Source: a virus
Taxonomy: Duplodnaviria > Caudoviricetes
Direction: 5' to 3' (one strand)
Virus record (IMG/VR): IMGVR_UViG_3300034069_002177
Span: 128,001-192,000 of that record
DNA: 64,000 nt
How positions within the stretch are numbered: the first letter of the stretch is position 1; every line of letters begins with the position of its first letter. The notes below the pieces were generated by a model, which was given only the letters and a program-made list of their open reading frames with translations, was not told the DNA's origin and did no database searches. A program made the position numbers and the translations under genes. Of this stretch, positions 18,395 to 56,942 are shown in pieces.

Positions 18395-21157
18395 ATGGCA
18401 AACGACGAAGAAGAAAAGAAGAAGAGCCTTGCGAGAGGCTTCATCGACTACGTAATCAAGAGCAACGAAGAATCATTAGGGCATGGTCCTTATGGTGCCG
18501 AGTCCGACAGTCACGTTGACGCGAAACCGTATGTCGAGTATTACCAGAATGGCATCTTCGAGGGCTATGACGGTTCTATCTGGAAGTATTACAAGTTCCC
18601 CGCTGACGTTCAGACGGAGTGGCTGAAGAACCCAGAGAACATCATCTACAACCAGAAGTTCTTCACTCAGGCAATCACGGAGTTCGGTACGTTCTTGAAT
18701 GCTCAGTTGGAAAAGACCCGTAATGACATCCGGCGTCCCTTCCACATCCAAATCACGCAATCCGAGTCAACTGGAATTCGTATCCCCAGTGAGCAGGATG
18801 ACCGTGAGGGCAAGGTAACCCAGAAGACTCGCGATTACCTCAAGCGTATGACGGACGGATACACCCGACCAATCTGGCATCAGTACATGGGAGTTCGCCT
18901 TATCCCCGGAACCTTGTTCGGTGACGCATTCGGCATTACCGAAAAGGTCCGTCGATACATCGAAATTATGACCAATCCAGGTGAGATCGACCTCGCTTCT
19001 ATGAGCCGTGACCTTCATGATGTGGACAACATTATGTATGGTGCTGGTTTTAGCGAACTGGACTTCATCGCAAACCCCGAAGACTTCGAGCAGCTTACCG
19101 CTTGGTATGGCGTCTCGGACTCTCAGTTCAACCTTTCTCGCTCGCTACAGACGACGCGTATGAAAGAACCTCTGTCAGGTATGTCTGTCATTACTCCCAA
19201 GTACCAAGAAATCCAGCTATTTGCGTTGAAGCCCCGCGAAGGTGTCAACTTGAAGGATCCCCTAGATCCCGATGCAGCATGGGCTAAGCCTTTATACCGA
19301 CCGACTTCTGAAGTTGTCATGATCAGTATTCGCGGTCAGATTCGTGCCCCGAAGATTGCTGAGAACCTTCTTGAACTGAAAAACATTCGCAAAAATGAAG
19401 CCGGTCGTAAGCTTGGTGACACGTCACGACACGAGGTTGCAGGAATGATTTCTGACCTTGATGCCATCGAGAGGGCTCGATACGTCATCAATGAATACAA
19501 GCTTCCAATGCTCGATAACCTCGAAATTGTTATGGCTGCTAAGGTTAAGGGCGACGGCATTACGAACCAATTGTTCAATAGCCTAAAGAGCTATGACATG
19601 GAGGCTAATCTCCTCGTTGGTCGTCAGCCATTGGGTATTATGGCGTCACTTCCGACATATCCTCGTCAGACTCTGCGTGTTCCTCGTGGCAACACTAAGC
19701 GTCCAGAACTTTCCAACGTCATGCTTCCAGGAATGCTCGCTATGAGCGGACTTTTCCGCAGCACCAAGCCTTGTGCCAACTTTGGTATTCTTGTGGGACT
19801 TGCAACTGCTGGGCACTCGTATGAGGAAATCATGACCGAGGTTGATGGCGCAGCTAAAAATAACCGCGTTCCTGGTATGCTCATCACTGGTCGTCCTGGT
19901 GCCGGTAAGACGCAGCAGCTTCTCCAAATGTCAATTCAAATTGCCAACATGGGTCTCCCTGTTGCCTTCTTCAACCCGAAGAAGGAGAGTACGTTGAAGC
20001 CGACATTTGATCACATTCACGGAATCACGATTTCGATGGAAACCGCTTATCTTGACCAGAACCCCGGTCTTCTTGACCCGGTATTCTTCCTTAAGAACCG
20101 TGGTGACGTTGCTGACCTCGTTTCCGATGCCATTCTTACGGCTAACCGCATGTATGAAGACCGTGGAGCTTCCGCTTCTCAGCGTCGTACCAAGGTTTCA
20201 TCTGAAATTCGTGACCGTGCTCTCGACAAGAGAAACAGAACAACTTTCGACATTTTGTTCGGAAATAAGGCTGTAGGAACCACGGCGATTACTGACACTG
20301 ACATTCTCGACTTCGTTCGCAGCAAGATCAGCATTAGTGCGTTCTGGAAGGCATTCATTGCTCCTACCGCAACAAGCTCGGAATTGCAAAAGCAGATTAC
20401 CAGTGGTCGCTCATTCCTTATGGAATGGGGTAGCTCAATGAAGCTTCCTGACGCGTCCAAGGTTCCCAACGACTACACAGACCCCGAGATTGACACCGTT
20501 CTTTCTATCAACGTTACATTCAAGTACGCCGCCGAGGTTGTTGGAGGCGGTCAGGGTGGCGCGATTGTGGTTGACGAGTCGTGGGTATTGAAGCAGTCTC
20601 GTGAAGCTATGGCTATCCTCACCAAGGGTGGTCGTGAATGGCGTCAGGCTAACATCATGCTTATTATGGGTACACAGCGAATCATTGACTGGATCGATGC
20701 TCGGTCTGAGAAATCAAGCGGCAGTGGTGGAGGCGCAAGCAACATGTCTTCATATTTCGACCGTTACCTCTTCATGGCTATCAACGAAGCTGACGAGAAC
20801 GAATTGTCGGCGTACTTCGAGTTGACGGGTCTTCCCGACACCGATGCGAACCGACGCTGGATTATCGAAGCTGGTCCTCGTAAGGATGGAAAACTTCCTA
20901 ACGGTTACTACATCGACAACATTTACAACTGGGCTGGCGGACTCGTTTGTGGACCCTGGCCGCAATATGAACTCGACTTGGGTCGTACTGACAAGGAGGG
21001 TCTTGCCATGAAACAAAGAGGCGCGGCTACAAAGGCTCAACAGTCTTTCGCCAAGGCAGCGTCTTCGGGCGGTTATGGCGGCGCTTTACTTGATGTTATG
21101 AGCAATGACAACGATTTGGTTTCTGAGTTCGAAGAAAAAGAAGACGTAAACGCGTGA
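18395..21157 (+). CDS. VirB4/ConE-like conjugation ATPase
   Basis: 920 aa; Walker A GRPGAGKT, Walker B IVVDESW, REWRQANIMLIMGTQ; conjugation context. Confidence 0.8.
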   Translation: MANDEEEKKKSLARGFIDYVIKSNEESLGHGPYGAESDSHVDAKPYVEYYQNGIFEGYDGSIWKYYKFPADVQTEWLKNPENIIYNQKFFTQAITEFGTFLNAQLEKTRNDIRRPFHIQITQSESTGIRIPSEQDDREGKVTQKTRDYLKRMTDGYTRPIWHQYMGVRLIPGTLFGDAFGITEKVRRYIEIMTNPGEIDLASMSRDLHDVDNIMYGAGFSELDFIANPEDFEQLTAWYGVSDSQFNLSRSLQTTRMKEPLSGMSVITPKYQEIQLFALKPREGVNLKDPLDPDAAWAKPLYRPTSEVVMISIRGQIRAPKIAENLLELKNIRKNEAGRKLGDTSRHEVAGMISDLDAIERARYVINEYKLPMLDNLEIVMAAKVKGDGITNQLFNSLKSYDMEANLLVGRQPLGIMASLPTYPRQTLRVPRGNTKRPELSNVMLPGMLAMSGLFRSTKPCANFGILVGLATAGHSYEEIMTEVDGAAKNNRVPGMLITGRPGAGKTQQLLQMSIQIANMGLPVAFFNPKKESTLKPTFDHIHGITISMETAYLDQNPGLLDPVFFLKNRGDVADLVSDAILTANRMYEDRGASASQRRTKVSSEIRDRALDKRNRTTFDILFGNKAVGTTAITDTDILDFVRSKISISAFWKAFIAPTATSSELQKQITSGRSFLMEWGSSMKLPDASKVPNDYTDPEIDTVLSINVTFKYAAEVVGGGQGGAIVVDESWVLKQSREAMAILTKGGREWRQANIMLIMGTQRIIDWIDARSEKSSGSGGGASNMSSYFDRYLFMAINEADENELSAYFELTGLPDTDANRRWIIEAGPRKDGKLPNGYYIDNIYNWAGGLVCGPWPQYELDLGRTDKEGLAMKQRGAATKAQQSFAKAASSGGYGGALLDVMSNDNDLVSEFEEKEDVNA

Positions 21158-31636: not shown

Positions 31637-34402
31637 ATGTTGAACTACTTTCTAATCGCCCTGGTGGCTATTATTGTCCTGCCCTTGCTCATCGGAGCGA
31701 TTGCAACCAGCGGTAAGTATGTCATTCGCGAACACGCGCGTGTCAGGCGTGGTCACATCGTCGGAGACCTCATCTGGAATGAAATCGAGTATGAAGGCAA
31801 CTTCCGTAAATTCGAGGGTGCGAATGATTCTATTCACACGGGAGATCTCGTCGGTCTGGTTACATTGGCTGAATCCATTCGTTCTTCTTTTCCGCATAAA
31901 GACCGTGGAGTCATCTCTTACGTTTGGTCACGTTCATCTGACACGTCCATTCACCTCTACTTGGGAGTGACAACTGAGCACTATGGTGATGGCTCACAGG
32001 TTCGTATTGCCGCGCAGTCTGTAGGAGCGCATGCAACTCGACTCGAACAGCAGCCGTACATTCCCGTTCAGGACATCTCTATCGCAATGCGTGGAAAGTC
32101 CTCTCCGCTACAGGCAACAAGCCCTGTCAAAGAGGGCGGTTCGGTAGCCAAGGCTCTTTCGACGGTGCTGGAAAAACTAGACAAGAACATTGCTGCGTCA
32201 TTCGTTGTTACGACCGAGTTCATGACAGATGGTGAGAAGCGCCAGCTTGCCGGATTCATCACGGCAGACAACATCGCCTCTGGTGGTGATGCCATGCAGT
32301 ACGGTATGGGTGTTCAAACTCAGACGATGAGCAATCAGCCCATCCGCTCTACAATCGTAGCCTCTACTTCCGAGCCAGCACAGGGCAAGCGCTCTTTGTC
32401 TTCAGTGCTTCTTAGTAGCGCCGTGAACTCTATCGCTACTTCTGGGTGGCAACATGATGTGCGACCTTTCTCCGCTGCTTCTGTGGGGCGCAATGGTGTC
32501 GTTCTTTCTGTGATCGGGGCGTTGTTCTCGATTCTTTTCACTGTCGTTCATGCTGTGCCTATCTTCATTGGTATTCCTCTAATCCTTGCTTCCCTGGCAA
32601 CCGGTTGGTTTGCCCTCGTCAAGGCGAGCCCAATGTCATTGGAGGCTGTGAGAAACAGACTTCTTCAAGGTGAGTTCAATGTGCCACCATACGTATTTTG
32701 GTTGTGGAACCCTCGCTGGATTTTCGAGAGCCGTACGCTCGGTCTTCGTTACGGCGGTAACTCTGTGCAACAGCACGAGGCTTCCCCTTCAACCAAGCGA
32801 GTCAACTACCTCAGCCCAATAGCGTTGTTTGAAATCCTGAGCTTCCCACCGTCATTCAGTCGTGGCGGTGGTGATGTTCACGCCGGAGAATCACTTTCTC
32901 GCGGAATTCCAAACTACATGGTTGATACCGAGTTCCCCATTTACTATGGTCAGAGCGGCTCTGGTCAGTTCGTTTCGCTTGATATCAAAGATTTGCACTA
33001 CTCGTTGTACACGGCTGGTGCACCTAACTCGGGTAAGACAAACTTCCTCCAAGTTATCTACGCGGGCGTTGTGAAGGCTTGCCTTGAACACACTAATGGA
33101 TTGCAGATTACTCCTATCTGGGCTGAGACTAAGGGTGAGGGTGCAGCGGATGCATGGGAGATTGCCCGTAAGCACAATCGCGCCGTATTCATCGAGGCTC
33201 ACAACCCCGCATCAAAATACCGGCTCTCATTAGAAGGTCGTCGTCTTTCTGAGGGTGCTTCTGTTCCCGAGGTCAAGGCGAACATCGACGTGCTTGTTTC
33301 CGGTATGCAGTTCGCATATGGTGATGGCATCCGTGCAGCTTCTCGTGAGGTATTGCTGAATTCACTGCTTATCTCGATGTTGATGAATCGTAACGATTTC
33401 GAATATCTCGGTATGGAGCGGTACGTCAATGCGGACAAGCCGAACATCATCGAAAGCGCTCGCATCATCCTGAATGGTGAATCTACCATTGACGTAGGAG
33501 AGAAGATTCTTCAGCTTCAAGAAGAGATGCGCGTTCGCGGAACTAACGATGCCCGCGAAGTTGCATTGCAGTCGGCAATCGGTCAACTCAGTCGATTCTT
33601 CGACCCTACTCTGCGGCGGTCTTCTCAGAGCGGTACCGTGCTTGGTCCCGCACTGAACAAGATTTCGTCCATGATGGAAGCTGACGTGTTGTGGTCACCT
33701 GATGAGCGTCCGGCTATCGCTGTGTCACAATTCCCGTTCCATTTCGCTCCCATCGTCCTGAACATGGGTCCGTTCAAGCTTCCTGACGGGAACTACAACT
33801 CGACCGTTGGTTCCGCCGCTGCTCAGAAGTTGTTGTTGGTTACCAATTACATCCTCTGGAACACCATCAAGGCACGCTGCTCGGGGTGGCAAGCACAAGG
33901 CAAGCGTATTCCGATGTTCTTCGACGAAGTGAAAGACGTTGCTGTTGACTCATCGAATGATGACGTAGCAAACGTTATTGCCGAGGCTGGTAAAGAGGGT
34001 CGTTCGCGTGGAGCTTCTTACTTCCTAGGCTCACAGTCTCCTTCTCAGTTGCCTTTCCAGGCAAAGAGCGCAGTGCTAAGTAGCCGTACTAAGTTCTGGT
34101 TCAACCTTCACGAATCGAACGATCTCCGCACCGCCATTGCCGAAGTGTCTTCTGCGTCGGAAGAACAGGACATCTACAAAACCAATGACATTCACAGCCT
34201 TCCTAATGGTACTGCTGTCGGGGTCATGCAGCGCGGTGATAAGCCAACTCCACCATTTACACTCCGAGTGCCCTTGGCTACAAAATGGGCAAGTTTCCTG
34301 TTGCGTCCAAATACTTCCGTTTCTGATGCAATCGTGGAATACTACGAGTGGCAGGAGCGCGATAGACGGGCAAAGCTAACAGGTGGTCAGGGTGCTCAGT
34401 AA
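31637..34402 (+). CDS. VirD4/TraD-like coupling ATPase with N-terminal TM segments
   Basis: Walker A GAPNSGKT, Walker B MFFDEVKD, EGRSRGASYFLGSQSPSQL; adjacent to relaxase-like gene. Confidence 0.75.
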   Translation: MLNYFLIALVAIIVLPLLIGAIATSGKYVIREHARVRRGHIVGDLIWNEIEYEGNFRKFEGANDSIHTGDLVGLVTLAESIRSSFPHKDRGVISYVWSRSSDTSIHLYLGVTTEHYGDGSQVRIAAQSVGAHATRLEQQPYIPVQDISIAMRGKSSPLQATSPVKEGGSVAKALSTVLEKLDKNIAASFVVTTEFMTDGEKRQLAGFITADNIASGGDAMQYGMGVQTQTMSNQPIRSTIVASTSEPAQGKRSLSSVLLSSAVNSIATSGWQHDVRPFSAASVGRNGVVLSVIGALFSILFTVVHAVPIFIGIPLILASLATGWFALVKASPMSLEAVRNRLLQGEFNVPPYVFWLWNPRWIFESRTLGLRYGGNSVQQHEASPSTKRVNYLSPIALFEILSFPPSFSRGGGDVHAGESLSRGIPNYMVDTEFPIYYGQSGSGQFVSLDIKDLHYSLYTAGAPNSGKTNFLQVIYAGVVKACLEHTNGLQITPIWAETKGEGAADAWEIARKHNRAVFIEAHNPASKYRLSLEGRRLSEGASVPEVKANIDVLVSGMQFAYGDGIRAASREVLLNSLLISMLMNRNDFEYLGMERYVNADKPNIIESARIILNGESTIDVGEKILQLQEEMRVRGTNDAREVALQSAIGQLSRFFDPTLRRSSQSGTVLGPALNKISSMMEADVLWSPDERPAIAVSQFPFHFAPIVLNMGPFKLPDGNYNSTVGSAAAQKLLLVTNYILWNTIKARCSGWQAQGKRIPMFFDEVKDVAVDSSNDDVANVIAEAGKEGRSRGASYFLGSQSPSQLPFQAKSAVLSSRTKFWFNLHESNDLRTAIAEVSSASEEQDIYKTNDIHSLPNGTAVGVMQRGDKPTPPFTLRVPLATKWASFLLRPNTSVSDAIVEYYEWQERDRRAKLTGGQGAQ

Positions 34403-35636
34403 CCTCGCGGGTGAAGCGAAGAAGGCGGATGTAAGTCCGGTCTATCAAACGCGACGGAAAACGTTAGGGATGGTAGACCGATTAGATCCTTTCTACGAAG
34501 TGGAATGGATTGATGCGCTGGCGACGAAATGGTCTGTCGTATCAGCTACCAAGCTCTCGTACAACGTAGACAATCTGGGAACCATCTACCAAAGCAGCGA
34601 AAAGGTCTTTGCTCCTATTGATGCCGCTGAGAAGAAAGTATATACCTCTGTGGGTATACGATGTGTTGCATCATTGGCGCAATTTCATCAACTCACAACA
34701 TTCCAGTTGGCTTCACTACTTGATGTCAAGGCAGAAGCTATCAACAGGGCTCTCACCGATCTTTATTCCTATGGTGTTGTCGAAAATGCCGTGCCCGCGT
34801 GGTCCAAGAATCCCACTCCTGGTCGGGATAAAAGCGGTAGTGGTTATCTCTGGCGACTCTCTAACGTGTCTGAGCGTTTAGAGCTATGGATGTCCAGACT
34901 GACAGAACTTGAAGCGAAGCTCATAGCTCAGGGTCGTGATATAGCAGTGGGCACCAATAGCTCTCGAAGCGGTTCGTCTATTCGCCACAACCTTGCCGCC
35001 AGCGAGCTAGTTCTTCGAGCAATGGAATCATGTCCCGCAGTTGTTGGTGCATGGGGAGAAACGGCAACTCTAGGTTCGCTATTCCTCAGTGAGGACATCA
35101 AGAAACAGCATGATCTTCGAGAGAATATCGGTGATGCCGCCATTGTCACTAAAGATGGTGGAATCATCATCTTTGAGACGAGCGGTGCAACCAACCTCGA
35201 TGACAAGGGTGGCGACAAACTTGAGAGCAAGGCTGCTGCATGGGCTTCTATTGCCGCACTGAGTGACATGGATATCAAGATCGTTTTCGTCAATATCAAT
35301 GCGGGTGCTCGAATGAACAGATTCGAGTGGAGAGTGATTCAGGGCTTGAACAAAATTGGTAAGTACATCACTAATACTGCGTTGCAGAAGAAAGGTGTGG
35401 AGGCTGTTTTCACCGCTAACGCCTACGACTGGTTCCCGATGCCTTTGACGGTATCGAAGGGGTTCGCATCTCTTCAGGTTTATCACCCCAAAGCGAAACG
35501 TTACTACGACCTAGCTCCCGCTCGTACTCAGTTTGATGTCGAATCAGATGCTATGGTAAACACCGTCGCAGCACTACATACGCCCAATTGGGTGCTACGT
35601 CGCGTTGTAAGCTCTTTGAACACCACAAACAAGTAA
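34383..35636 (+). CDS. Replic_Relax/MOBC-like relaxase candidate (wHTH plus PD-(D/E)XK-like)
   Basis: QLTTFQLASLL..AINRALTDL (wHTH), IRHNLAASELVL, GDAAIVT..GIIIFETSG, KLESK; overlaps coupling-protein stop. Confidence 0.55.
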   Translation: MVRVLSNLAGEAKKADVSPVYQTRRKTLGMVDRLDPFYEVEWIDALATKWSVVSATKLSYNVDNLGTIYQSSEKVFAPIDAAEKKVYTSVGIRCVASLAQFHQLTTFQLASLLDVKAEAINRALTDLYSYGVVENAVPAWSKNPTPGRDKSGSGYLWRLSNVSERLELWMSRLTELEAKLIAQGRDIAVGTNSSRSGSSIRHNLAASELVLRAMESCPAVVGAWGETATLGSLFLSEDIKKQHDLRENIGDAAIVTKDGGIIIFETSGATNLDDKGGDKLESKAAAWASIAALSDMDIKIVFVNINAGARMNRFEWRVIQGLNKIGKYITNTALQKKGVEAVFTANAYDWFPMPLTVSKGFASLQVYHPKAKRYYDLAPARTQFDVESDAMVNTVAALHTPNWVLRRVVSSLNTTNK

Positions 35637-44981: not shown

Positions 44982-45017
44982 GAGGGCGGGTAGCTAATAA
45001 GCTACCCGCCCTTCTTT
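44982..45017. terminator. Terminator between convergent dnaE and dnaB
   Basis: GAGGGCGGGTAGCT-AATA-AGCTACCCGCCCTT. Confidence 0.85.
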
Positions 45018-46471: not shown

Positions 46472-46613
46472 CGTATTCCTCTTATCGCTTGGCTGACACT
46501 GTACCAAACAACTTTGCCGAAGTCTACTTCTCGCGAGCATTAAGTCGTGCCAAAGAACACTGGACAAAAGGGCTGGGTTGTGTATGATGGGTGCACTAAT
46601 ATCGAAAGCGTGA

Positions 46614-48845
46614 ATGATGACTGACGAAATCCTAAAGGTAGTTACGGCAAAGCCGGACTTGATCGAGATTCTCGACAAAGAACTTGCCGAAAAAATCAGC
46701 TACCTTCTGACCAAGGATGACGATGTGGATAACCCCGTCCTTCCCTTCAGCAAGATTGGTAGCGCCAAAGAAGCTCTTCTCTCCCTGAGTTCTCAGGTAA
46801 GTTGGATTGCATCTGCTGTAGAAGACGCATTATGGGCACGCACTAATCAGTACCTTATCCAGCCTGAGCCGAGTGCTTGGCTGGTCGGAACTTACATGGT
46901 AATTCAGGCTCCTTACGCGTTGACACTATCAGACCAAATCTCGCAGATTAGTAAGCGGTACTACTACAGCCACTCTCTATCGGGCTGGGTGGTCAACCTG
47001 CAAGCGGCGGATCTCGACCAGATCGAGGCGGTTCTTTTCCTTTACGGGATCTCTGTTTCCGTCAATCTTGCTGACGCCATTGAAGGTCGCTCTGAATGGA
47101 AAAGCGTTCTGTCTCAGCTTGTTGAAGACTCTATCAAGGAGGGCTTCAAAGTCCCCGACCCTGCTATCTTCAGCACTAATCGTGAATACAAGCCTTGGCA
47201 AAAGGAATCCATTCTTGCAATGGCATATCAAGGCACTAGCCTCCTGACCGATCAGGTTGGTCTCGGTAAGGGTGGCTCATTCGTCGGTACATCTCTCGCC
47301 ATCAATCAGTTCCGTAATGGAACGAATATCAAGCATGGCGAGTTCCCTGTTGTCATCGCTGTCACCAAATCCATGAAGGACGAGATTGGTGAAGAAGTAT
47401 TACGGTGGTGGGGTGAAGCCAAAGTAGAGATTATCGGTGGAGCCAAGGCTGCTCCTATTGAACCCGGCAAGGACTTCTACATCATCAACCACGACATCAT
47501 CTCGAATCGTGTTGACGACCTGATTGCTCTCAACCCAGTTGGTTTTATCGCTGATGAGTGCCACGTCTACAAGAACGATCTCGCTAAGCGTGCTCAGGCG
47601 GCACACAAGTTGTCTAAGCACATCATCAAGAACGCTGAAGCCAACGATGTCGAGCCTTTCATCATCATGGCTAGCGGTACTCCGTTCTTAAACGCCCCTA
47701 TTGAACTATGGAGCCTTTTGGAAATTCTTGGCATCGACTACATCTTTGCGAAGTTCGCTCGGTCCAAGTTGACACGAACCACAATGGAGATCAAAAACCC
47801 CAAGTTTGATTTCAAGCGTGCCGCCAACAGCAAAAACCCTCGCACAATCGAAGTTCCTTTGACCGATAAGGGCGCGTTCGAGTATTACTTCTGCGAAGCA
47901 AAGTTTGACAAGTTCCACATTTGGCAGAACAAGGGTGCGGCTCACGTCAAGGAACTACACAAGCTTCTCATCGACACGGGTATGGTTCGTCGTCGTAAGT
48001 CTGATGTTATGCACCCGCTTCCTAAGCTGACCGAAGATGTAGTCAAGATTTCTATGACCAGCGAAGCGTGGGCTGAGTACGAACGACTCGACGAGGAATT
48101 CCGCGAGTGGGCTATCAACGAAGCTCGTGAACTTGCCAGGACAGAAAACATCAGTATTCCGAAAGCCATCATGGAGATTACGCGGAAGTTAGATAACGGC
48201 GAAGCGATGATGCGTTTGACAAAAATCCGTCAGTGGCTCGGTATGGGTAAGGTCGATGGAACCGTCGAGTGGATTCATAAGTTCATGGCGAACGACCCCG
48301 AAGTTACAGGCGGCGATGAGACTCGACAGAAGCTTATTGTGTTCGTCCACCACCAAGACCCACGAAAGGCTCTCATCGAGCACCCCGAGCTACAGCAGTA
48401 CGGCATTTTGACCATCCTGCCCGGTGGCGACCAAACCGGTGAAAGCATCCAAAGCCACAAGCGACTCTTCCAAAAGGACGACCGTTACCGACTCATGATT
48501 TGCAGCATGGCGGCTCGTGAGGGGCACACGTTGACTGCGGCTAAGGATGTTTACCTTCACGAAATTCCGTTCGTTCCATCATGGGTTGTGCAGATGGCTG
48601 GTCGTTGCTGGGCACGTCTTTCCGAAGACTTCGAGCCACACGATGCGAACATTCACTATGCCGTTGTTGACGGCACAGAAGACCCTCGTCTGTTGCAGAT
48701 GAACCGCATTAAGAAGGCTACCTTCAATGCCGTCATCGACGGTGAGGGTCAGGATGATTCGATTACTGAGATGAAGGGCGAATCGGTCGAGACTCTGGTT
48801 CGTTCCATCCTGCGAAAGACCAAGGAAATCGGAGTTGCGGCATAA
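46614..48845 (+). CDS. SNF2-family (HARP/SMARCAL1-like) helicase
   Basis: DQVGLGKG, ADECH, ASGTPFLNAPIELWSLL, REGHTL, QMAGR. Confidence 0.85.
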   Translation: MMTDEILKVVTAKPDLIEILDKELAEKISYLLTKDDDVDNPVLPFSKIGSAKEALLSLSSQVSWIASAVEDALWARTNQYLIQPEPSAWLVGTYMVIQAPYALTLSDQISQISKRYYYSHSLSGWVVNLQAADLDQIEAVLFLYGISVSVNLADAIEGRSEWKSVLSQLVEDSIKEGFKVPDPAIFSTNREYKPWQKESILAMAYQGTSLLTDQVGLGKGGSFVGTSLAINQFRNGTNIKHGEFPVVIAVTKSMKDEIGEEVLRWWGEAKVEIIGGAKAAPIEPGKDFYIINHDIISNRVDDLIALNPVGFIADECHVYKNDLAKRAQAAHKLSKHIIKNAEANDVEPFIIMASGTPFLNAPIELWSLLEILGIDYIFAKFARSKLTRTTMEIKNPKFDFKRAANSKNPRTIEVPLTDKGAFEYYFCEAKFDKFHIWQNKGAAHVKELHKLLIDTGMVRRRKSDVMHPLPKLTEDVVKISMTSEAWAEYERLDEEFREWAINEARELARTENISIPKAIMEITRKLDNGEAMMRLTKIRQWLGMGKVDGTVEWIHKFMANDPEVTGGDETRQKLIVFVHHQDPRKALIEHPELQQYGILTILPGGDQTGESIQSHKRLFQKDDRYRLMICSMAAREGHTLTAAKDVYLHEIPFVPSWVVQMAGRCWARLSEDFEPHDANIHYAVVDGTEDPRLLQMNRIKKATFNAVIDGEGQDDSITEMKGESVETLVRSILRKTKEIGVAA

Positions 48846-48870
48846 CCAAAGGACTACAATTGGTCCTGCC

Positions 48871-49617
48871 ATGAGTGCATCAAATTGGGTACAGCGTATC
48901 CGTCACAACAAGGAAATTTCCGACCGCAAACGTTACTGGGAGAATGTTCTCCCAGATACGAAACTTGCTTCTGTCGAGGTAGAGCCAGGTGTTCTGGGTC
49001 TTCATATTGAGACCTTTCAACTACGTGAGGGAACTGAATTTGAAGGAGTGCGGGCGCGGCTTCAGCAGATCGAGAAAAAGATAGACACAGATAAGGCTTG
49101 TGTCTGTCCCGTCAATCGCGTTGCTGATTCTTGTGAAGCTGGAGAAGACCGCATAGGCACAGAAGGTTTCCGTATCGTCTGGTCCAAAAGCAGTGAAATC
49201 CCATCCATATTCTCAGATGACCTTACACAACGCGAAAGAGATTTCATTGCACGGCTAGAAATTGTGCCGCTTCTTGAAAGTTTCAAGCGCATCGGTTACT
49301 GCCCGCTGCTACACGCACGTCTCGTAACCGATGATGACTCATCAGGTAAGGTAATCGTCATCTCTGTCATCAGTCGCTCAGGTGCTCAAATGGAAGATTT
49401 CGAAGAAGCTCAGAACTTACTCGCACAGAAGTACGGAGCGGGACTTGTAGCGTTTTTCAATGAAGGCGAGTTCGATTCGTCTATGATGGTGTCAATCGTT
49501 ATCAGTGCTAAAGAAAACTCTGCTCAGGAAGGTGATATCTCCTTCATCGAGACGGGTACGATTCCCGTTGTCAAGGGAATTAGAAGCGCACAGAAGATAG
49601 TCACCAAGGAGATTTAA
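48871..49617 (+). CDS. Paralog of the central (pre-ATPase) domain of the downstream FtsK-like protein
   Basis: IGTEGFRIVW...RIGYCPLL aligns with VGSAGFRVWW...GLGYCTML in 49617..52709; TAATG coupling. Confidence 0.7.
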   Translation: MSASNWVQRIRHNKEISDRKRYWENVLPDTKLASVEVEPGVLGLHIETFQLREGTEFEGVRARLQQIEKKIDTDKACVCPVNRVADSCEAGEDRIGTEGFRIVWSKSSEIPSIFSDDLTQRERDFIARLEIVPLLESFKRIGYCPLLHARLVTDDDSSGKVIVISVISRSGAQMEDFEEAQNLLAQKYGAGLVAFFNEGEFDSSMMVSIVISAKENSAQEGDISFIETGTIPVVKGIRSAQKIVTKEI

Positions 49618-52600
49618 TGCGTGGTCGCGGTATACTCGGACCCTGGGAACTTTGGCGCAAGATCGCACTCGGTGGTGTCGTTGTTGTAGCAATTTTCTTG
49701 TATGTGGCGCTGTCCATTCCCGTGGGTTTCGTATTCCTCGGAATCCTTTTGGGTGCGGCGTACATCTGGAAAGACCTGTCGATGACAGATGTCAACAAGG
49801 GAATGTACATCATGATGACATTCCCCTTCCGACTGGCTACATTCTTCGTTTCCTACAAAATGAACATGCGTCAACTCCTGACGCTGAACACCGTTGCATT
49901 CGGTGCGCCAACAGATGACGAAGACCATGAAGTGGCAGCGGGTCTTGCTCCGTGGACTCGACTTTCTTCCTATTGGGTCGGATTCGTCTCTGTACTCCTT
50001 GGAATCCCGGATATCTTCTTGGTTCATGCTCACTACCCGATTTGGGGTATGGCGTTCTCTATCCCGTGGTTCATCGGCTACCCACTTAGCGTGGTCGGTT
50101 GGTTCATCATGATTCAAACCATCTTCGCCACCCGGAGAATCCAAGGTGACAAGGAAACCATCGCCGCAGTCGAGCCTCGTCCCGCTGTTCTCATCAACAA
50201 AAGCCGTGCAGAACTTCCGTTTATGGAGTTGCTGCCCAAAGCTCTCATTTACGGAAGCGGTCCGGCGTTCCTCTTACTTCTCATTGGACTTTTTGCCAAG
50301 TTACCTATTTGGTTGACTCTCGTTATCGTTCTCGCGGCGTTTGTCATGGGACTAGCTATCGCAGCAAGTCGAATCATGGCTGGTGCTTATATCGTCGGAT
50401 GGCAAGCACGAGCCGAGAGGCGTGACTTCTGGACCAATGCGTTTGAGTTCATGCGCGACAAAATTCCTGGCTTCAACGTCGAGATGCAGCTTCCTACATT
50501 AGAAGAGCATGAGAATACTCAGTTACAGAGACGACTAGCTCGTGAACGGATTGCTCGCGCACGTCGTAGTGGGGCTGCTCGTAAGGGTGGCGGTGATATC
50601 GAGGTTAGTAGTGAAGAAACAGGCGATGAGCCTTACGATCCTCAGGTCAAGATTGCTACTTTTGGATACCCTCAGGGTTCTACATTCGATGACTTCAAGG
50701 AAGTCGCGCCTCGTATCAGCAACGCACTGGGTGTGGATCTTTGTGCCATCTCTCCCATCGGAAACATCACGACTTCCAATGAGGAAGTTCCGGGTACGGT
50801 AGGTTCCGCTGGATTCCGCGTATGGTGGACTGAGACCGACCCGCCGCCCTTGCTATCACCGGATATCGACCTGTGGATGCGCGAGCTTCTCGTGCGCTCC
50901 AGAGTCATTCCTGCATTGTCAAAGGTGCGCGGTCTGGGCTACTGCACGATGTTGACTTGCTCGATGATTACTCGCCCTGAGTCAAAACGTCAAATCATGG
51001 AAGTCCGTGTCATTCCTCCCGTTGGCGTCAGCGTCCAGAGCTTCTTTGCCAACCTCGAAACCATCAAGTCGGCATTGGATGTCGAATGGGTCCGTATCAA
51101 GGGCAGCGATGACAAGTCTGCTAACGCTGGTGGTCAGGCACCTATCTCGCTGTTTATTGGAGATATGCCTACCTTCAATGATCGTACCGAGACAAGCTTC
51201 GTTCGTCCCCCCGCCGTTGTTCGTGACATGATCGACAAGATGGATTGGCAGTATTACTGGTCTGTTTTGAAGCTACAGGGATCTGATGGATTCCCCAAGC
51301 TTGCTGACCGCGTTGCAACCACTCCTATCGTGGACAAGCTAATCTTCTCCATTCCTAGTGGTATGGCATTCGAAGAGTTCCCGACGAAGTTGTCTGCAAT
51401 CAAGACGACTTCGGGTTATTCGTTCATGGAGATTCAGCAGGGTAACGAAATCGAAACCAAAGACATGACAGCAGAGGAAGCGCTAGAAGCCGAGCGCGCT
51501 CAGCAGTCGATGTTCACCGTTATCGCCAGTCGCGAAGATCCGTTGAAGCGCGTGTTCAACTTCATGGACTACAAGGACCAAATTCTTCCTGGTCGTGTTC
51601 CAGGCGAAGAGAACATTTCTTGGTCTCCTGGTGTCATGGCTGACGATGGACTAGCTGTATACGACTGGGACGCAGAAGAGCCTCACCTGTTGATTGCTGG
51701 TGCTTCCGGTAGTGGAAAATCTGTTGTTGCATCAGCATTCATCTTGCAGGTCATGCAGAACAATGGACCGGGTGAAGCTAGATTCTGGATGATTGAACCC
51801 AAGAACGAAATGCAGGTCTACCGAGATGTAGACGTTGTAGAGCGCTTCGTTGATTCGTGGACACCTGATGAGGACTTCATCAAGAACGCCGCTGACCTCA
51901 TGTGGGATGCTCGTGTAGAGATGGACAACCGCAACAAGATCTTCTCGTCTCACCCCAAGGCACCCAAGAAGCTCTCGAAAGCGCGAGAAATTGCCAAACT
52001 GGAATCTCAGCGCAACGGTACGCCGCTAGAAGACCACCCGCTCTACCTGCCATACCTGTTCATTATCCTAGAGGAGTGCGCAACGCTGTTTGCCGAGTCC
52101 TCTAACGCTGAAGAAAAGAACGAGCAGAAGCGTCTTCTCACCAACACTGCGGAAATCGCTCGTAAGGCGCGTTCGGCTGGAATCTACCTTGTTGCGCTGA
52201 CTCAGTACCCGACCAATGCGTCTATCCCTTCGGTTATCCGTCAGCAGATGCGTCGTATTGGTTTGAAGTGTCAGAATGACATGGCTTCGCGCGTTGTTAT
52301 TGAAGAGAACGGTCTCGAAAAGATCAAGACCAAGGGCGTCGGTATGATTTCACAGAAGGGCAACTACCGTTCCTTCCGTGGATTCTGGGTGAAGGATGGT
52401 GACCCTGACGAGGGCAAGCCAAACGACATTCTCGATATCCTCGGTGCCCTTCCAAAGAACCGTGGTGCTGGCTTCGGTGGAGGTGGCTCCGGTTCGGCTG
52501 CGGCTAAACCAAGGCTCGTTCTTCCTAAGCCAGACCAGACAATCTTCAACATCTGGGACTCCAGCTATGGTGGAGCAATCAGCAATGCCGTGGACGAACG

Positions 52601-52709
52601 CAAGAAAACCAAGGACAAGACTTACACCGACCTCGGTTATGTTTCACCTCAGGATCCCAAGTCTACTGATGAGGCACTGGAAGACGATGAAGACTTGGTA
52701 AGCGTCTGA
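49617..52709 (+). CDS. FtsK/SpoIIIE-family membrane DNA translocase (TcpA/TraB-like)
   Basis: Multiple N-terminal TM segments; HLLIAGASGSGKS, IEPK, IILEECA, RKARSAGIYLVALTQYP. Confidence 0.85.
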   Translation: MRGRGILGPWELWRKIALGGVVVVAIFLYVALSIPVGFVFLGILLGAAYIWKDLSMTDVNKGMYIMMTFPFRLATFFVSYKMNMRQLLTLNTVAFGAPTDDEDHEVAAGLAPWTRLSSYWVGFVSVLLGIPDIFLVHAHYPIWGMAFSIPWFIGYPLSVVGWFIMIQTIFATRRIQGDKETIAAVEPRPAVLINKSRAELPFMELLPKALIYGSGPAFLLLLIGLFAKLPIWLTLVIVLAAFVMGLAIAASRIMAGAYIVGWQARAERRDFWTNAFEFMRDKIPGFNVEMQLPTLEEHENTQLQRRLARERIARARRSGAARKGGGDIEVSSEETGDEPYDPQVKIATFGYPQGSTFDDFKEVAPRISNALGVDLCAISPIGNITTSNEEVPGTVGSAGFRVWWTETDPPPLLSPDIDLWMRELLVRSRVIPALSKVRGLGYCTMLTCSMITRPESKRQIMEVRVIPPVGVSVQSFFANLETIKSALDVEWVRIKGSDDKSANAGGQAPISLFIGDMPTFNDRTETSFVRPPAVVRDMIDKMDWQYYWSVLKLQGSDGFPKLADRVATTPIVDKLIFSIPSGMAFEEFPTKLSAIKTTSGYSFMEIQQGNEIETKDMTAEEALEAERAQQSMFTVIASREDPLKRVFNFMDYKDQILPGRVPGEENISWSPGVMADDGLAVYDWDAEEPHLLIAGASGSGKSVVASAFILQVMQNNGPGEARFWMIEPKNEMQVYRDVDVVERFVDSWTPDEDFIKNAADLMWDARVEMDNRNKIFSSHPKAPKKLSKAREIAKLESQRNGTPLEDHPLYLPYLFIILEECATLFAESSNAEEKNEQKRLLTNTAEIARKARSAGIYLVALTQYPTNASIPSVIRQQMRRIGLKCQNDMASRVVIEENGLEKIKTKGVGMISQKGNYRSFRGFWVKDGDPDEGKPNDILDILGALPKNRGAGFGGGGSGSAAAKPRLVLPKPDQTIFNIWDSSYGGAISNAVDERKKTKDKTYTDLGYVSPQDPKSTDEALEDDEDLVSV

Positions 52710-52721
52710 AGAAACGGACAG

Positions 52722-52765
52722 TTGTGAGTTCTCGGGTTGCATGGTATTGTGTAACCCGAGAAAGG
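52722..52765 (+). promoter_or_regulatory. Promoter TTGTGA-17-TATTGT embedded in 13-bp hairpin overlapping the sbcD RBS
   Basis: TTCTCGGGTTGCA 52729-52741 / TGTAACCCGAGAA 52750-52762; RBS GAGAAAGG 52758-52765. Confidence 0.65.
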
Positions 52766-52770
52766 CAAGA

Positions 52771-53937
52771 ATGATCAAGATTATCGCTATCGCGGACCCG
52801 CATGTCGATGCTACCTCTATTGGAGGATTTGATAAGGACAAGGGTATTCACTCGAACTGGGTAGAGTCCTTTGCTCGTCTGAATGACGCTATTGACGCAG
52901 CTAATGCGTGTGAAGCTCAGTTCTTCGTTGTGGCTGGTGACTTGTTCGATACCGGTAAGCCAACTGCTGAAGCTGTTGCGCTCGTTCGCGATGCCTTTCG
53001 TCGTCTTCATCCTGGTTGTATTGTCGTCATTATCGACGGCAATCACGATCAGCAGACGGTCGTGGGTAATCAGCGCACCCCTGTTGCTGCTTACTTTGGA
53101 GATCTCAAAAATGTTGTGACTGCTTCCACTCCTGAACTCATTGATATCGATGGAATGCAGTTCGCTCTAGCACCGTGGATTCGCGTAGCAGGCAAGTCGA
53201 AAGTTCGGAACATTAGCGACGAACTGAAAATGGTCGTGGAAGGTCTTTCGAACAAAGTAAAACCGGGACCGTCGATGTTCCTCGGTCACCTCGTGGTTGA
53301 TGAATGCACATTCGACAATGGGATGGATAACCGTGGCTCTGAAATGAACATGGCTACTACCTTGCTGGAAGCCCACGTTCCCACCGAACTACTCGATGCA
53401 GGCGAATGGTCACTAGCGCGGCTGGGTCACATTCACAAGCGCCAGCAACTTTCGGCAAAAACCGGTTACATCGGTTCGCCCTATAAAGTTTCGTTCGGTG
53501 AATATCGCGAGTCGAAGGGTTACGACCTCATCACTATTGACGACAAGAACAATTCTACTGTCACGTTCAAGGAACTAAAAGTCCGTAACCTCGTCAAGCT
53601 AGACCTCAGTTCAACTGGCGAAGACAGCATCACCGATATCGAAAAGGTGGGCGAACACGACATCGTTCGTCTTGTAGTTGATCACGATGGCGCTGATTCT
53701 TTGGACATCAAGAACGCTAAGGCGAGATTGGAGAAGCTTGGTATCTCTCATCAGATTTCTCGTCTGCCTCGACCCAAGCGTGATGCAATTTCTCGCGTGA
53801 ATGGTGCCGCTGTTGACACGACCCCGGTCAGCGCACTGCTGTTGTACTTGGACAGACACGGTGTAACTGAGCTTGATGAGCGCGATGCGCTGGTTCATGA
53901 ACTCAGTGCCATTCTCAACATGGTCGGGACTAAGTAA
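52771..53937 (+). CDS. sbcD: SbcD/Mre11 nuclease
   Basis: ADPHVD, VAGDLFD, IDGNHD, LGHLVV, LGHIHKRQ, YIGSP. Confidence 0.88.
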   Translation: MIKIIAIADPHVDATSIGGFDKDKGIHSNWVESFARLNDAIDAANACEAQFFVVAGDLFDTGKPTAEAVALVRDAFRRLHPGCIVVIIDGNHDQQTVVGNQRTPVAAYFGDLKNVVTASTPELIDIDGMQFALAPWIRVAGKSKVRNISDELKMVVEGLSNKVKPGPSMFLGHLVVDECTFDNGMDNRGSEMNMATTLLEAHVPTELLDAGEWSLARLGHIHKRQQLSAKTGYIGSPYKVSFGEYRESKGYDLITIDDKNNSTVTFKELKVRNLVKLDLSSTGEDSITDIEKVGEHDIVRLVVDHDGADSLDIKNAKARLEKLGISHQISRLPRPKRDAISRVNGAAVDTTPVSALLLYLDRHGVTELDERDALVHELSAILNMVGTK

Positions 53938-56258: not shown

Positions 56259-56942
56259 ATGGGTATACTAGACGTTTCTTGGGATAGTTCGGATTCGAAT
56301 GAAGAAGGACTGTTCCCAATTTTTGACAATATGGAGAGCCGCGTAAGGGTTCCTAAAACAGTGAAGTCGTTTGACATCACGATGCGACGCGAAGACCGCG
56401 ATATCGAGGCAGACTACGTGTTCATCGTATGGCTTGCTCGTAAAAAGGTCGGCGGCGTTTTCAATGATGGAAGTGGTCAAGCTATTTCTCGCGATGAAGG
56501 GCATCTCGCTGTCTGTGCAAAACCAGACCTTTTCCCCATCATCAATCCCGAGATTGGACCTCTGGATATCGATGACTTCTTTGCAGAGTTACCTTTTGCC
56601 GAAGACTATGACGCAGGCGAGGACAATGAGCAGTACCAACTCGACTATGTGAGTTCGGCTATCAAGATAATCAATGCGAAGAATGCATGCAAGGCATGCC
56701 CCCTTCGTGCCAAGTGTCTTGCTGATTCAATTCTTATGGGTGATGAAGATCGTGATTTCGGTGCGAATTCAAACGTTCGACCACTTCCTGGTATCTGGGG
56801 AGGGCGTGAGTTGAAAGATCGCAAGAGCGTGGCACGTCGTTTCAAGGCAATTCGAAATGACTATCTCTCGAACGATATGTCAGCCGACAAGCGTCGTATG
56901 TACGAGCGCAAGGCATCGCAGTTTATCGATGACCGACCTTAA
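56259..56942 (+). CDS. WhiB-family Fe-S transcription factor, extended
   Basis: C-x57-C-x2-C-x5-C and GIWGG, basic C-terminus. Confidence 0.75.
   Translation: MGILDVSWDSSDSNEEGLFPIFDNMESRVRVPKTVKSFDITMRREDRDIEADYVFIVWLARKKVGGVFNDGSGQAISRDEGHLAVCAKPDLFPIINPEIGPLDIDDFFAELPFAEDYDAGEDNEQYQLDYVSSAIKIINAKNACKACPLRAKCLADSILMGDEDRDFGANSNVRPLPGIWGGRELKDRKSVARRFKAIRNDYLSNDMSADKRRMYERKASQFIDDRP

Follow-up and report, generated by a model that had tools for sequence, protein, structure and literature searches.

A Motor-Less Paralog of the Stalk of an FtsK-Like Pump Encoded by a Gene Overlapping the Pump Gene

Gene organization at the locus

The window, 64,000 nucleotides of IMG/VR record IMGVR_UViG_3300034069_002177 (positions 128,001 to 192,000), contains a small gene directly followed by a gene for a 1030-amino-acid FtsK-like protein (49617-52709), hereafter the pump. 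The features around the two genes are as follows.

46561..46588, + strand: promoter-like site, TGGACA-16-TATGAT (consensus scan, 10 of 12 matches; a consensus match only)
46614..48845, + strand: gene for a SNF2-family helicase of 743 amino acids, the conserved upstream neighbor (Pfam SNF2-rel_dom, E = 5e-14)
48871..49617, + strand: small gene (P0003) for a soluble motor-less paralog of the pump stalk, 248 amino acids (ATG at 48871, TAA at 49615-49617)
49606..49619, + strand: coupling junction with an AAGGAG Shine-Dalgarno sequence and a TAATG stop/start overlap (read directly)
52741..53937, + strand: gene for an SbcD/Mre11-like metallophosphatase, the conserved downstream neighbor (Pfam Metallophos, E = 1e-9); its true start may be the ATG at 52772

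The AAGGAG (49606-49611) lies within the final codons of the small gene at a spacing of 5 nt from the pump ATG, and in the TAATG (49615-49619) the stop codon of the small gene overlaps the start of the pump gene. This design is repeated in L005 (GAAGGAGGTCTGATG) and in L007/L008 (AAGGAAAGCTTAATG), whereas in L009 the two genes are separated by 14 nt, with GGTGG. The stop/start overlap and the internal Shine-Dalgarno sequence are therefore kept in three of the four lineages. A preliminary description of this DNA, made from the letters alone, had given the coordinates, reading frames, and TAATG overlap correctly, and its view that the small gene is separate and translationally coupled agrees with the conserved junction. 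Frameshift fusion of the two products was rejected because the junction has no slippery heptamer. The promoter-like site before the SNF2 gene is a candidate start for a transcript carrying the SNF2, small, and pump genes. A strong bidirectional terminator (44982-45013) lies upstream of it.

Architecture of the pump

The predicted structure of the pump (pLDDT 84) has six transmembrane helices, three modules that each consist of a helix followed by a beta-beta-alpha-beta-beta fold, and a RecA motor, in that order.

49617..50399, + strand: membrane domain, residues 1-261, about six transmembrane helices, N-in/C-in by charge distribution (hydropathy scan)
50409..50831, + strand: stalk module U1, residues 265-405, paralogous to module 1 of the small protein (profiles and model)
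50499-50636, + strand: basic helical and disordered insertion in U1, residues 295-340, not in the small protein (alignment and model)
50871..51161, + strand: stalk module U2, residues 419-515, paralogous to module 2 of the small protein (profiles and model)
51207..51608, + strand: module U3, residues 531-664, canonical FtsK alpha domain (superposition)
51609..52469, + strand: RecA-type beta motor, residues 665-951 (Pfam FtsK_SpoIIIE, PDB, Foldseek)
51699-51722, + strand: Walker A motif GASGSGKS, residues 695-702 (sequence)
52470..52709, + strand: acidic, Gly-rich, low-confidence C-terminal tail (pLDDT < 50 over much of the tail)

The hydropathy pattern recurs in about 30 family members. The motor scored 60.4 bits against Pfam FtsK_SpoIIIE (PF01580; cut-off 24, E = 2e-16, residues 686-865) and matched FtsK in the PDB by sequence (E = 3e-17) and, with Foldseek, by structure (E = 4e-20). 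U3 and the motor together (model residues 267-687) superposed on E. coli FtsK 858-1242 and P. aeruginosa FtsK 330-715 with Z scores of 29-30 over about 360 residues, and U3 itself (model residues 267-400, corresponding to protein residues 531-664) aligned with the alpha domain of 2IUS, 2IUT, and 6T8B. The above-cut-off motor, with an alpha domain directly N-terminal to it, places the pump in the FtsK/SpoIIIE superfamily. The Pfam FtsK_alpha sequence model did not detect U3, no gamma/winged-helix domain was detected and no FtsK_gamma or 4TM Pfam match was found in the pump, and the stalk profile returned only noise from PDB sequences. The PADLOC matches of the pump (SspH, mad8, and HerA) cover only the generic motor, and for this reason the pump was not regarded as a recognized defense system.

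Profile comparisons related all three modules to one another in structural register (U1/U3, E = 2e-5; U1/U2, E = 1.6e-4; U2/U3, E = 2.4e-4). These internal repeats were not significant with four near-identical sequences and became detectable with 25 diverse sequences. The earlier count of about three repeats is thus borne out by the unit profiles and by the three modules that AlphaFold predicts. What is repeated is the fold of the FtsK alpha domain, of which U3 is the canonical copy.

Fold and ancestry of the small protein

The AF2 model of the small protein (pLDDT 84.4, pTM 0.82) comprises a helix and two modules.

48877..48939, + strand: N-terminal helix with an R-x-x-Y-W motif, residues 3-23 (AF2 secondary structure)
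48958..49185, + strand: alpha-like module 1, residues 30-105, beta-beta-alpha-beta-beta, with an invariant G-F-R..W motif (alignment and AF2)
49216..49548, + strand: alpha-like module 2, residues 116-226, helix plus beta-beta-alpha-beta-beta (VIA-align)

With VIA-align, module 2 superposed on solved FtsK structures with Z scores of 8.2-8.7 (rmsd 2.8-3.2 Å, 89-92 residues). For P. aeruginosa FtsK the match started at residue 328/329; three of four chains gave 329-419 or 329-449, two of them the longer span. The match to E. coli FtsK fell in the range 858-1204. The top five structures were all FtsK, and the next, unrelated match had a Z score of 5.9. Module 1 matched TcpA (Z 7.5) and E. coli FtsK (Z 7.1) best, at ranks 1 and 2 of 48,161 chains, although these scores are inside the usual noise range. 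The helix plus beta-beta-alpha-beta-beta unit of the small protein thus superposes on solved FtsK and has the alpha-domain fold. The FtsK matches came from VIA-align; Foldseek alone gave no match to the model at E <= 0.001. Module 2 also weakly resembles the ferredoxin-like dimerization domains of GspL, PilO, and EpsM, with Z scores (5-6) in the noise range. The ESM Atlas returned only generic tandem ferredoxin-like proteins (Dabb, ABM, and NIPSNAP; scores <= 0.87), a likeness that was treated as fold-level noise, the Atlas model being poor.

Sequence and hydropathy scans of the small protein revealed neither a Walker A motif nor a hydrophobic segment. The small protein and the pump stalk are both acidic (pI about 5), and contact of the small protein with DNA is therefore unlikely. 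Neither had a match in Pfam (E up to 10), PHROGs, NCBIfam, or PADLOC, and the only significant relatives of the small protein are pump stalks.

The small protein is a paralog of pump residues about 265-550. BLASTP aligned its residues 38-177 with pump residues 338-476 at 24% identity (E = 5e-18), a six-frame HMMER search of the element recovered the similarity at E = 6.5e-16, and hhalign matched the family profiles over 183 columns (probability 98.8%, E = 8e-17; small protein 44-227 versus pump 344-530). The paralogy begins exactly at the conserved juxtamembrane R-x-x-F-W motif. The N-terminal helix of the small protein and the pump's juxtamembrane helix are homologous, and the motif, in the form R-x-x-F/Y-W-x-x-V/A-F, is kept in every free and fused member. 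The small protein covers the entire juxtamembrane stalk (helix-U1-helix-U2-helix) minus the 46-residue basic insertion. In a tree the free forms make up an old separate clade and do not follow the stalks of their neighbors; the duplication of the stalk is old and is not a recent copying of the neighboring gene.

These results sustain the collinear alignment reported in the preliminary description, including by the pairwise HHalign comparison that it had proposed as a check, and extend the N-terminal motif match that it had noticed to the whole family. Its interpretation, a soluble ATPase-less partner that forms a hetero-oligomer with the pump or is its adaptor or regulator, stands in part: the duplicated pre-ATPase region is encoded as a separate, coupled gene for a soluble protein with no ATPase, and that protein is probably a partner or regulator of the pump.

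Conservation and distribution

Seven homologs of the small protein were 46-58% identical to it. The open reading frame is intact in all eight homologs, with 54 invariant columns, and pN (0.30-0.43) is well below pS (0.72-0.87). The small gene is under purifying selection. It is also the fastest-evolving gene of the cluster: dN was 0.38-0.65 compared with 0.06-0.19 for the pump, with dS saturated, and the small protein changes 3-6 times faster than its stalk counterpart. Such a rate is unusual for an obligate stoichiometric subunit and counts against an explanation based on co-assembly.

The small gene and the pump gene are syntenic in all four distinct related metagenomic loci (L005/L006, L007, L008, and L009), which make up a close sublineage. 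However, the co-occurrence expected in homologous loci fails in the relative L015, in which the small gene is absent beside a 37%-identical pump ortholog, and in the Euzebya pacifica megaplasmid, the whole of which lacks the small gene. Thus, the small gene is accessory rather than universal, and the pump can work without the small protein. The SNF2 and SbcD-like genes keep their places in every related locus, even in the distant L015 (37% identity and E = 6e-164 for SNF2); conservation of the trio of SNF2, pump, and SbcD-like genes goes deeper than that of the small gene.

The stalk family has about 48 cluster representatives among 1.84 billion, and several of these are motor-less. The other free-standing forms (P0014, P0048, P0058/45/51, P0046/50/53, and P0037) come from several deep lineages. 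Scans of viral contigs with these other forms gave no match, scans of 185,579 species genomes found no family member, and no phage record matched the stalk or the small protein. One family member is located on the 572-kb E. pacifica megaplasmid, near large hypothetical proteins and a peptidoglycan endopeptidase.

The element

The element encodes a VirB4-like AAA_10 protein (18395-21157), a candidate relaxase with a weak Replic_Relax match (34383-35636), a P-loop protein (31637-34402) that abuts the candidate relaxase, and a WhiB protein. There was no capsid or terminase Pfam match in the element and no VirD4/TraG Pfam match in the record. The element is a giant actinobacterial mobile element (source contig 654 kb), probably a conjugative plasmid-like one, with an ICE or a phage as alternatives. 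The genes around the pump gene are for replication and repair; the channel genes lie 15 kb away, and the pump gene is not adjacent to the VirB4-like or relaxase candidates. The P-loop protein, rather than the pump, may be the real coupling protein, and the pump itself may serve conjugation, partition, or another process.

Possible function of the small protein

Chromosomes, plasmids, and spore DNA are all cargo of FtsK-family pumps. These pumps are thought to be homo-hexamers with one alpha ring, which holds the motor shut around DNA. In FtsK, DNA passes from the beta ring out via the alpha ring, which is a rigid, ring-closing aperture (PMC7321959). The pump described here would be a hexameric FtsK/TcpA-type double-stranded-DNA pump anchored by its six transmembrane helices, in which two added alpha copies, placed after the membrane domain and before the canonical alpha-beta motor, would replace the usual flexible linker. 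Given the FtsK transport direction and the order membrane-U1-U2-alpha-beta, the alpha domains are expected to form a three-tier tube that would guide DNA from the motor towards the membrane pore, which would amount to DNA export from the element. The small protein would duplicate, in free form, the two tiers nearest the membrane, juxtamembrane helix included, and would be made from the pump's own mRNA through coupled translation. It may attach to the stalk by the alpha-to-alpha contacts that also keep the rings intact, whether as further subunits within the outer tiers or next to them, or as a cap that can come off, and in this way it would steer assembly or gating of the DNA conduit. We tentatively prefer this explanation, that the small protein binds the pump stalk and controls conduit assembly or gating, and consider it quite possible as a whole.

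A truncated paralog that has oligomerization-type modules, and neither the anchor nor the motor, might instead be a decoy or inhibitor that joins related pumps' rings and disables them; either its own pump, until a signal relieves the inhibition, or the pump of competing related elements (exclusion) could be the target. The high dN of the small protein relative to that of the pump is as expected of a conflict-facing protein, and the gene is dispensable in other lineages. However, coupled translation from one mRNA would supply inhibitor and target together at a fixed ratio, the old clade of free forms does not track the neighbors' stalks, and saturated dS leaves no measurable sign of positive selection. 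A decoy is unlikely. It is quite improbable that the small protein assembles with itself into a ring or dimer and acts independently of the pump, for example as a membrane scaffold for the SNF2 helicase and the SbcD-like nuclease or for a secretion channel. Such a role would fit the deeper conservation of the SNF2/pump/SbcD-like trio and the resemblance of module 2 to the dimerization domains of the GspL, PilO, and EpsM assembly platforms, but the scores of that resemblance are noise, pump stalks are the only significant relatives, and the small protein keeps the juxtamembrane motif of the pump even though it has no membrane anchor.

The absence of the small gene from some relatives and its rate of evolution, the fastest in the cluster, could also be read as signs of a decaying, functionless remnant of a partial gene duplication. 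This is very hard to reconcile with an open reading frame intact in every homolog, a pN/pS ratio well below 1, a confidently predicted fold, conserved translational coupling, and free forms in several deep lineages. A pseudogene was rejected on the basis of selection, fold, and conservation.

A fuller version of the preferred explanation, in which a small protein that binds the stalk belongs to a new FtsK-type export machine, is doubtful. In such a machine, used by giant actinobacterial plasmid-like elements, a rigid tube of three alpha rings would lead from the motor to a 36-helix membrane pore, and a detachable double-alpha protein would complete or gate the outer tiers.

If such a machine exists, no dedicated subunit lacking a motor would have preceded the small protein among FtsK-family translocases. 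A structured triple-alpha stalk in place of a floppy linker, together with a free copy of that stalk, would offer a tractable system and raises the questions of how such a motor connects to its membrane pore and whether alpha rings can be used as regulatory or assembly modules. The analysis also defines a rare family that has no Pfam model and that marks very large, mostly uncultured actinobacterial elements. The E. pacifica megaplasmid is the one cultured handle on this family, though it lacks the small gene.

Comparison with known systems

The pump resembles FtsK of E. coli and P. aeruginosa (2IUS, 2IUT, and 6T8B) in its superposable alpha and RecA-type beta domains (Z 29-30), its Walker A motif, and its N-terminal membrane anchor, has TQYP where FtsK has TQRP, and is presumably likewise a hexamer around double-stranded DNA. 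It differs from FtsK in having six transmembrane helices rather than four, two extra alpha-like modules in place of the long linker, no gamma (KOPS/XerD) domain, and a location on a mobile element with a separate motor-less stalk paralog. It is not a chromosomal FtsK; the score against NCBIfam NF007615 was 58.5 bits (cut-off 1566), with no gamma or 4-TM match. Nor is it a type VII EccC/EssC protein, as it has a single P-loop domain instead of the two or three tandem FtsK-like ATPase domains of that class, EccCa/EssC models scored 34-40 bits (cut-offs 509-778), and its structural matches span only one ATPase domain.

On its fold the pump may be a coupling protein of the TcpA type, a class linked in genes and function to a Gram-positive T4SS and relaxase. 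TcpA, the FtsK-like coupling protein of Clostridium perfringens pCW3 (6O1W-6O1Z), which has related Gram-positive counterparts, is, like the pump, a membrane-anchored alpha-beta ATPase with no gamma domain (Z about 28), and it is the top structural match of module 1 of the small protein (Z 7.5, within noise). The element also encodes a VirB4-like ATPase. However, TcpA has a single alpha domain compared with three in the pump; it has two transmembrane helices and is not known to have a free alpha-domain partner. The location of the pump gene, among replication/repair genes and away from channel genes, is a further difference.

TraB/Tra proteins of Streptomyces plasmids and AICEs are FtsK-like pumps thought to export double-stranded DNA, and the pump shares with them its presence on an actinobacterial mobile element. 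In contrast to TraB, the pump showed no winged helix at its C terminus of the type that recognizes clt/TRS, and the membrane domain and triple alpha stalk differ. The score against NCBIfam NF041214 (plasmid_TraB) was 31.5 bits (cut-off 800).

In GspL-GspM and PilN-PilO, the partners share a helix plus ferredoxin-like module and pair through these modules. Those proteins are periplasmic, both partners are membrane-anchored, and they have no sequence relation to the pump and the small protein. What they have in common with this pair, by analogy and with a weak fold likeness (Z 5-6), is the principle of paralogous partners.

Similarity of the small protein to the pump stalk

The preliminary description proposed that the protein encoded by the small gene (48871-49617, 248 aa) aligns collinearly with the FtsK-like protein encoded after it, designated here as the pump (49617-52709, 1030 aa). 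BLASTP recovered this alignment between small-protein residues 38-177 and pump residues 338-476, with 24% identity, one gap, and an E value of 5e-18. The proposed HHalign comparison, which drew on eight homologues of the small protein (46-58% identity) and four orthologues of the pump (77-88% identity), gave the same result over 183 columns (small protein 44-227, pump 344-530; probability 98.8%, E 8e-17). Judged from these sequence comparisons, the similarity is well above chance. When the entire element was searched in six frames with HMMER, only these two places matched. The N-terminal pair quoted earlier, RKRYWENVL and RRDFWTNAF, belongs to the motif R-x-x-F/Y-W-x-x-V/A-F, which in the pump directly follows the last transmembrane helix and is retained in all fused and free-standing relatives. 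The small protein has neither a Walker A motif nor a hydrophobic segment, in agreement with the predicted soluble, ATPase-less product.

Predicted architecture

The AlphaFold2 model of the small protein (12-row alignment; pLDDT 84.4, pTM 0.82) comprises a helix (3-23), a beta-beta-alpha-beta-beta unit (30-105), a helix (120-136), a second unit (146-213), and a final helix (231-244). In the model of pump residues 265-1030 (25-row alignment, 32-88% identity; pLDDT 83.9, pTM 0.71) this helix-unit pattern appears three times, as the earlier count of about three repeats implied, and is followed by a RecA-type domain and an acidic tail of low confidence:

U1, residues about 265-405 (model)
U2, residues 419-515 (model)
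U3, residues 531-664 (model)

In the model, the first hairpin of U1 holds an insertion (295-340) with a long basic helix and a disordered stretch. These 46 residues (window 50499-50636), an Arg/Lys-rich helix and then an acidic disordered stretch, may be a DNA- or lipid-contacting element; the small protein lacks them.

In VIA-align, residues 267-687 of the pump model superimposed on FtsK of E. coli (858-1242) and of P. aeruginosa (330-715) with Z 29-30 across about 360 residues, and on TcpA with Z about 28. From this superposition of the third module and the motor, U3 is the canonical alpha domain, and U1 and U2 come in addition to it. Several comparisons indicated that U1 and U2 are alpha-like as well. 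Profile comparisons of 25 sequences matched U1 with U3 (E 2e-5 over 62 columns), U1 with U2 (E 1.6e-4), and U2 with U3 (E 2.4e-4), all in structural register. The stalk HMM gave recurrent, sub-threshold second matches on the U3 region in many family members. The top five structural matches to module 2 of the small protein were all FtsK chains (Z 8.2-8.7, next match Z 5.9; rmsd 2.8-3.2 A over 89-92 residues, from PaFtsK 328/329, 329-449 in two chains), and for module 1 TcpA (Z 7.5) and E. coli FtsK (Z 7.1) ranked 1 and 2 of 48,161 chains, with a score that, taken alone, does not rise above noise. Hydropathy and charge distribution indicated six transmembrane helices with both ends cytoplasmic, and Pfam detected no gamma domain in the pump. 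Together with the module models, this gives a predicted architecture of TM6, alpha', alpha', alpha, beta. In its own model the small protein reads helix-alpha'-helix-alpha'-helix and corresponds to the stretch of pump stalk that begins at the membrane boundary and extends to the canonical alpha domain's first helix.

Gene junction

The two genes overlap at TAATG as originally claimed: the small open reading frame runs from ATG 48871 to TAA 49615-49617, and AAGGAG (49606-49611) lies 5 nt upstream of the pump ATG. The design of the junction is conserved among related loci: L005 has TGATG with GAAGGAGG, L007 and L008 share TAATG with AAGGAAAG, and in L009 the genes are 14 nt apart, with GGTGG. 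At the start of the small gene (48849-48873), an AAAGGA ribosome-binding site lies 17 nt from ATG 48871. In L005 and L007 an ATG lies 6 nt past this site; the corresponding codon in the window is ATT (48859). Translation of the window's small protein may start at this ATT or else be poorly initiated on its own.

Distribution and evolution

A stalk profile search of 1.84 billion cluster representatives returned 48 proteins at E <= 0.001. The majority, 950-1070 aa long, share the membrane domain, the stalk, and Walker A. Long members (1300-1720 aa among these proteins; 1300-1760 aa in the family, with P0011, P0012, P0015, and P0049 and locus L026:10516-15804) carry LAGLIDADG inteins at the P-loop/Walker A region of the motor, and forms without motor or anchor (233, 253, about 375, about 390, and 397 aa) occur in several lineages. 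No family members were found in 50,697 phage records or 185,579 species genomes. P0054 (1072 aa) consists in part of four tandem repeats of 252 residues. Each repeat weakly resembles positions 22-76 of the stalk profile (E 0.003), and the protein is probably unrelated.

The expected co-occurrence in homologous loci held only in part. The order SNF2, small gene, pump, SbcD-like is kept in four distinct related loci (L007, L008, L009, and L005, the last on the same contig as L006), but L015 and a Euzebya plasmid have the pump without the small gene. In L015 (2746-9424) SNF2, the pump, and the SbcD-like protein share 35-37% identity with their counterparts in the window, the pump gene begins 21 nt after SNF2 with no small gene between, and the 37-kb fragment contains no free copy. 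Among named records, a family member occurs only in the circular Euzebya pacifica megaplasmid pEDY32-46I (571,580 bp), whose intein-bearing 1762-aa pump is annotated only as 'LAGLIDADG family homing endonuclease'; the whole plasmid has no free small-gene copy. The SNF2/FtsK-like/SbcD-like trio is the older conserved module, in which a membrane DNA pump is linked to an SNF2 helicase and to an Mre11/SbcD-like nuclease.

In a quick maximum-likelihood tree with weakly supported deep branches, free forms mostly cluster apart from fused stalks, requiring two label changes (0 of 500 shuffles were as low). The small gene is therefore an old lineage, and a recent copy of the neighboring pump gene was dropped as its origin.

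Among the window, L005, L007, and L009, with synonymous sites saturated (pS 0.72-0.87), non-synonymous differences were 0.30-0.43 for the small gene; the corresponding values were 0.06-0.17 in the paralogous stalk and 0.02-0.09 in the motor. The small-gene values relative to pS show purifying selection, and 54 columns are invariant among the eight homologues. The small gene evolves 3-6 times faster than the stalk that it copies. Despite this saturation at synonymous sites, no gene of the cluster is more conserved than the pump relative to L005, L007, and L009 (77-88% identity; motor dN 0.02-0.09), and its neighbors are far less constrained (SNF2 dN 0.10-0.27, SbcD-like dN 0.18-0.32).

Possible function

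In FtsK, DNA moves from the beta ring outward through the alpha ring, which stays symmetric, holds the hexamer closed, and guides DNA (PMC7321959). Because of this path and the pump's domain order, the motor's exit side would face the membrane. A rigid conduit of three alpha tiers would lead to a pore of 36 helices, an arrangement that, by analogy, is consistent with DNA export. The two tiers nearest the membrane, with the interfacial helix, recur in the small protein, which coupled translation produces together with the pump. The most economical reading of this putative partner is binding to the stalk by alpha-type contacts, with a role in assembling, extending, or gating it, a proposal to which we give slightly less than even odds.

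A decoy or inhibitor would suit a gene that evolves rapidly and is dispensable, but translational coupling to the pump argues against this role, which we consider unlikely. An independent scaffold acting with the SNF2 and SbcD-like neighbors is a little less likely again, and a decaying remnant is highly improbable. Functions beyond these account for the remainder.

Host element and comparison with known systems

The source record (202,737 bp), of which the window covers bases 128001-192000, is classed as a provirus in IMG/VR, and the longest contig listed in the cluster entry of the small protein is 654,127 bp. Pfam searches of the whole record found no match to Terminase_6N, HK97-capsid, or VirD4/TraG. 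The record has a WhiB gene and a complete replication set (PolIII alpha, DnaB, clamp loader, NAD ligase). Genes in the window include:

18395-21157, VirB4-like AAA_10 ATPase
31637-34402, 921-aa P-loop protein with only marginal FtsK/HerA similarity
34383-35636, weak Replic_Relax match
56259-56942, noted together with 18395-21157 and 31637-35636

Because terminase and capsid matches are absent and WhiB, VirB4-like, Replic_Relax, and replication genes are present, we take it, though not firmly, to be plasmid-like or conjugative, actinobacterial and very large, and not a proven phage. Between the convergent PolIII-alpha and DnaB genes lies a bidirectional terminator, a perfect GC-rich hairpin of 13-14 bp (44982-45013).

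In a non-exhaustive literature check, neither a stalk of tandem alpha domains nor an alpha-domain paralogue lacking the motor was described. The observation itself is solid, and the architecture is unusual; the function proposed for the small protein is putative, and some family members occur without its gene. The pump belongs to the FtsK/SpoIIIE superfamily but fails the curated models for chromosomal FtsK, from which it also differs in lacking a gamma domain, for plasmid TraB, and for EccC/EssC. In function, the nearest analogues of the pump are TraB and coupling proteins of the TcpA type.
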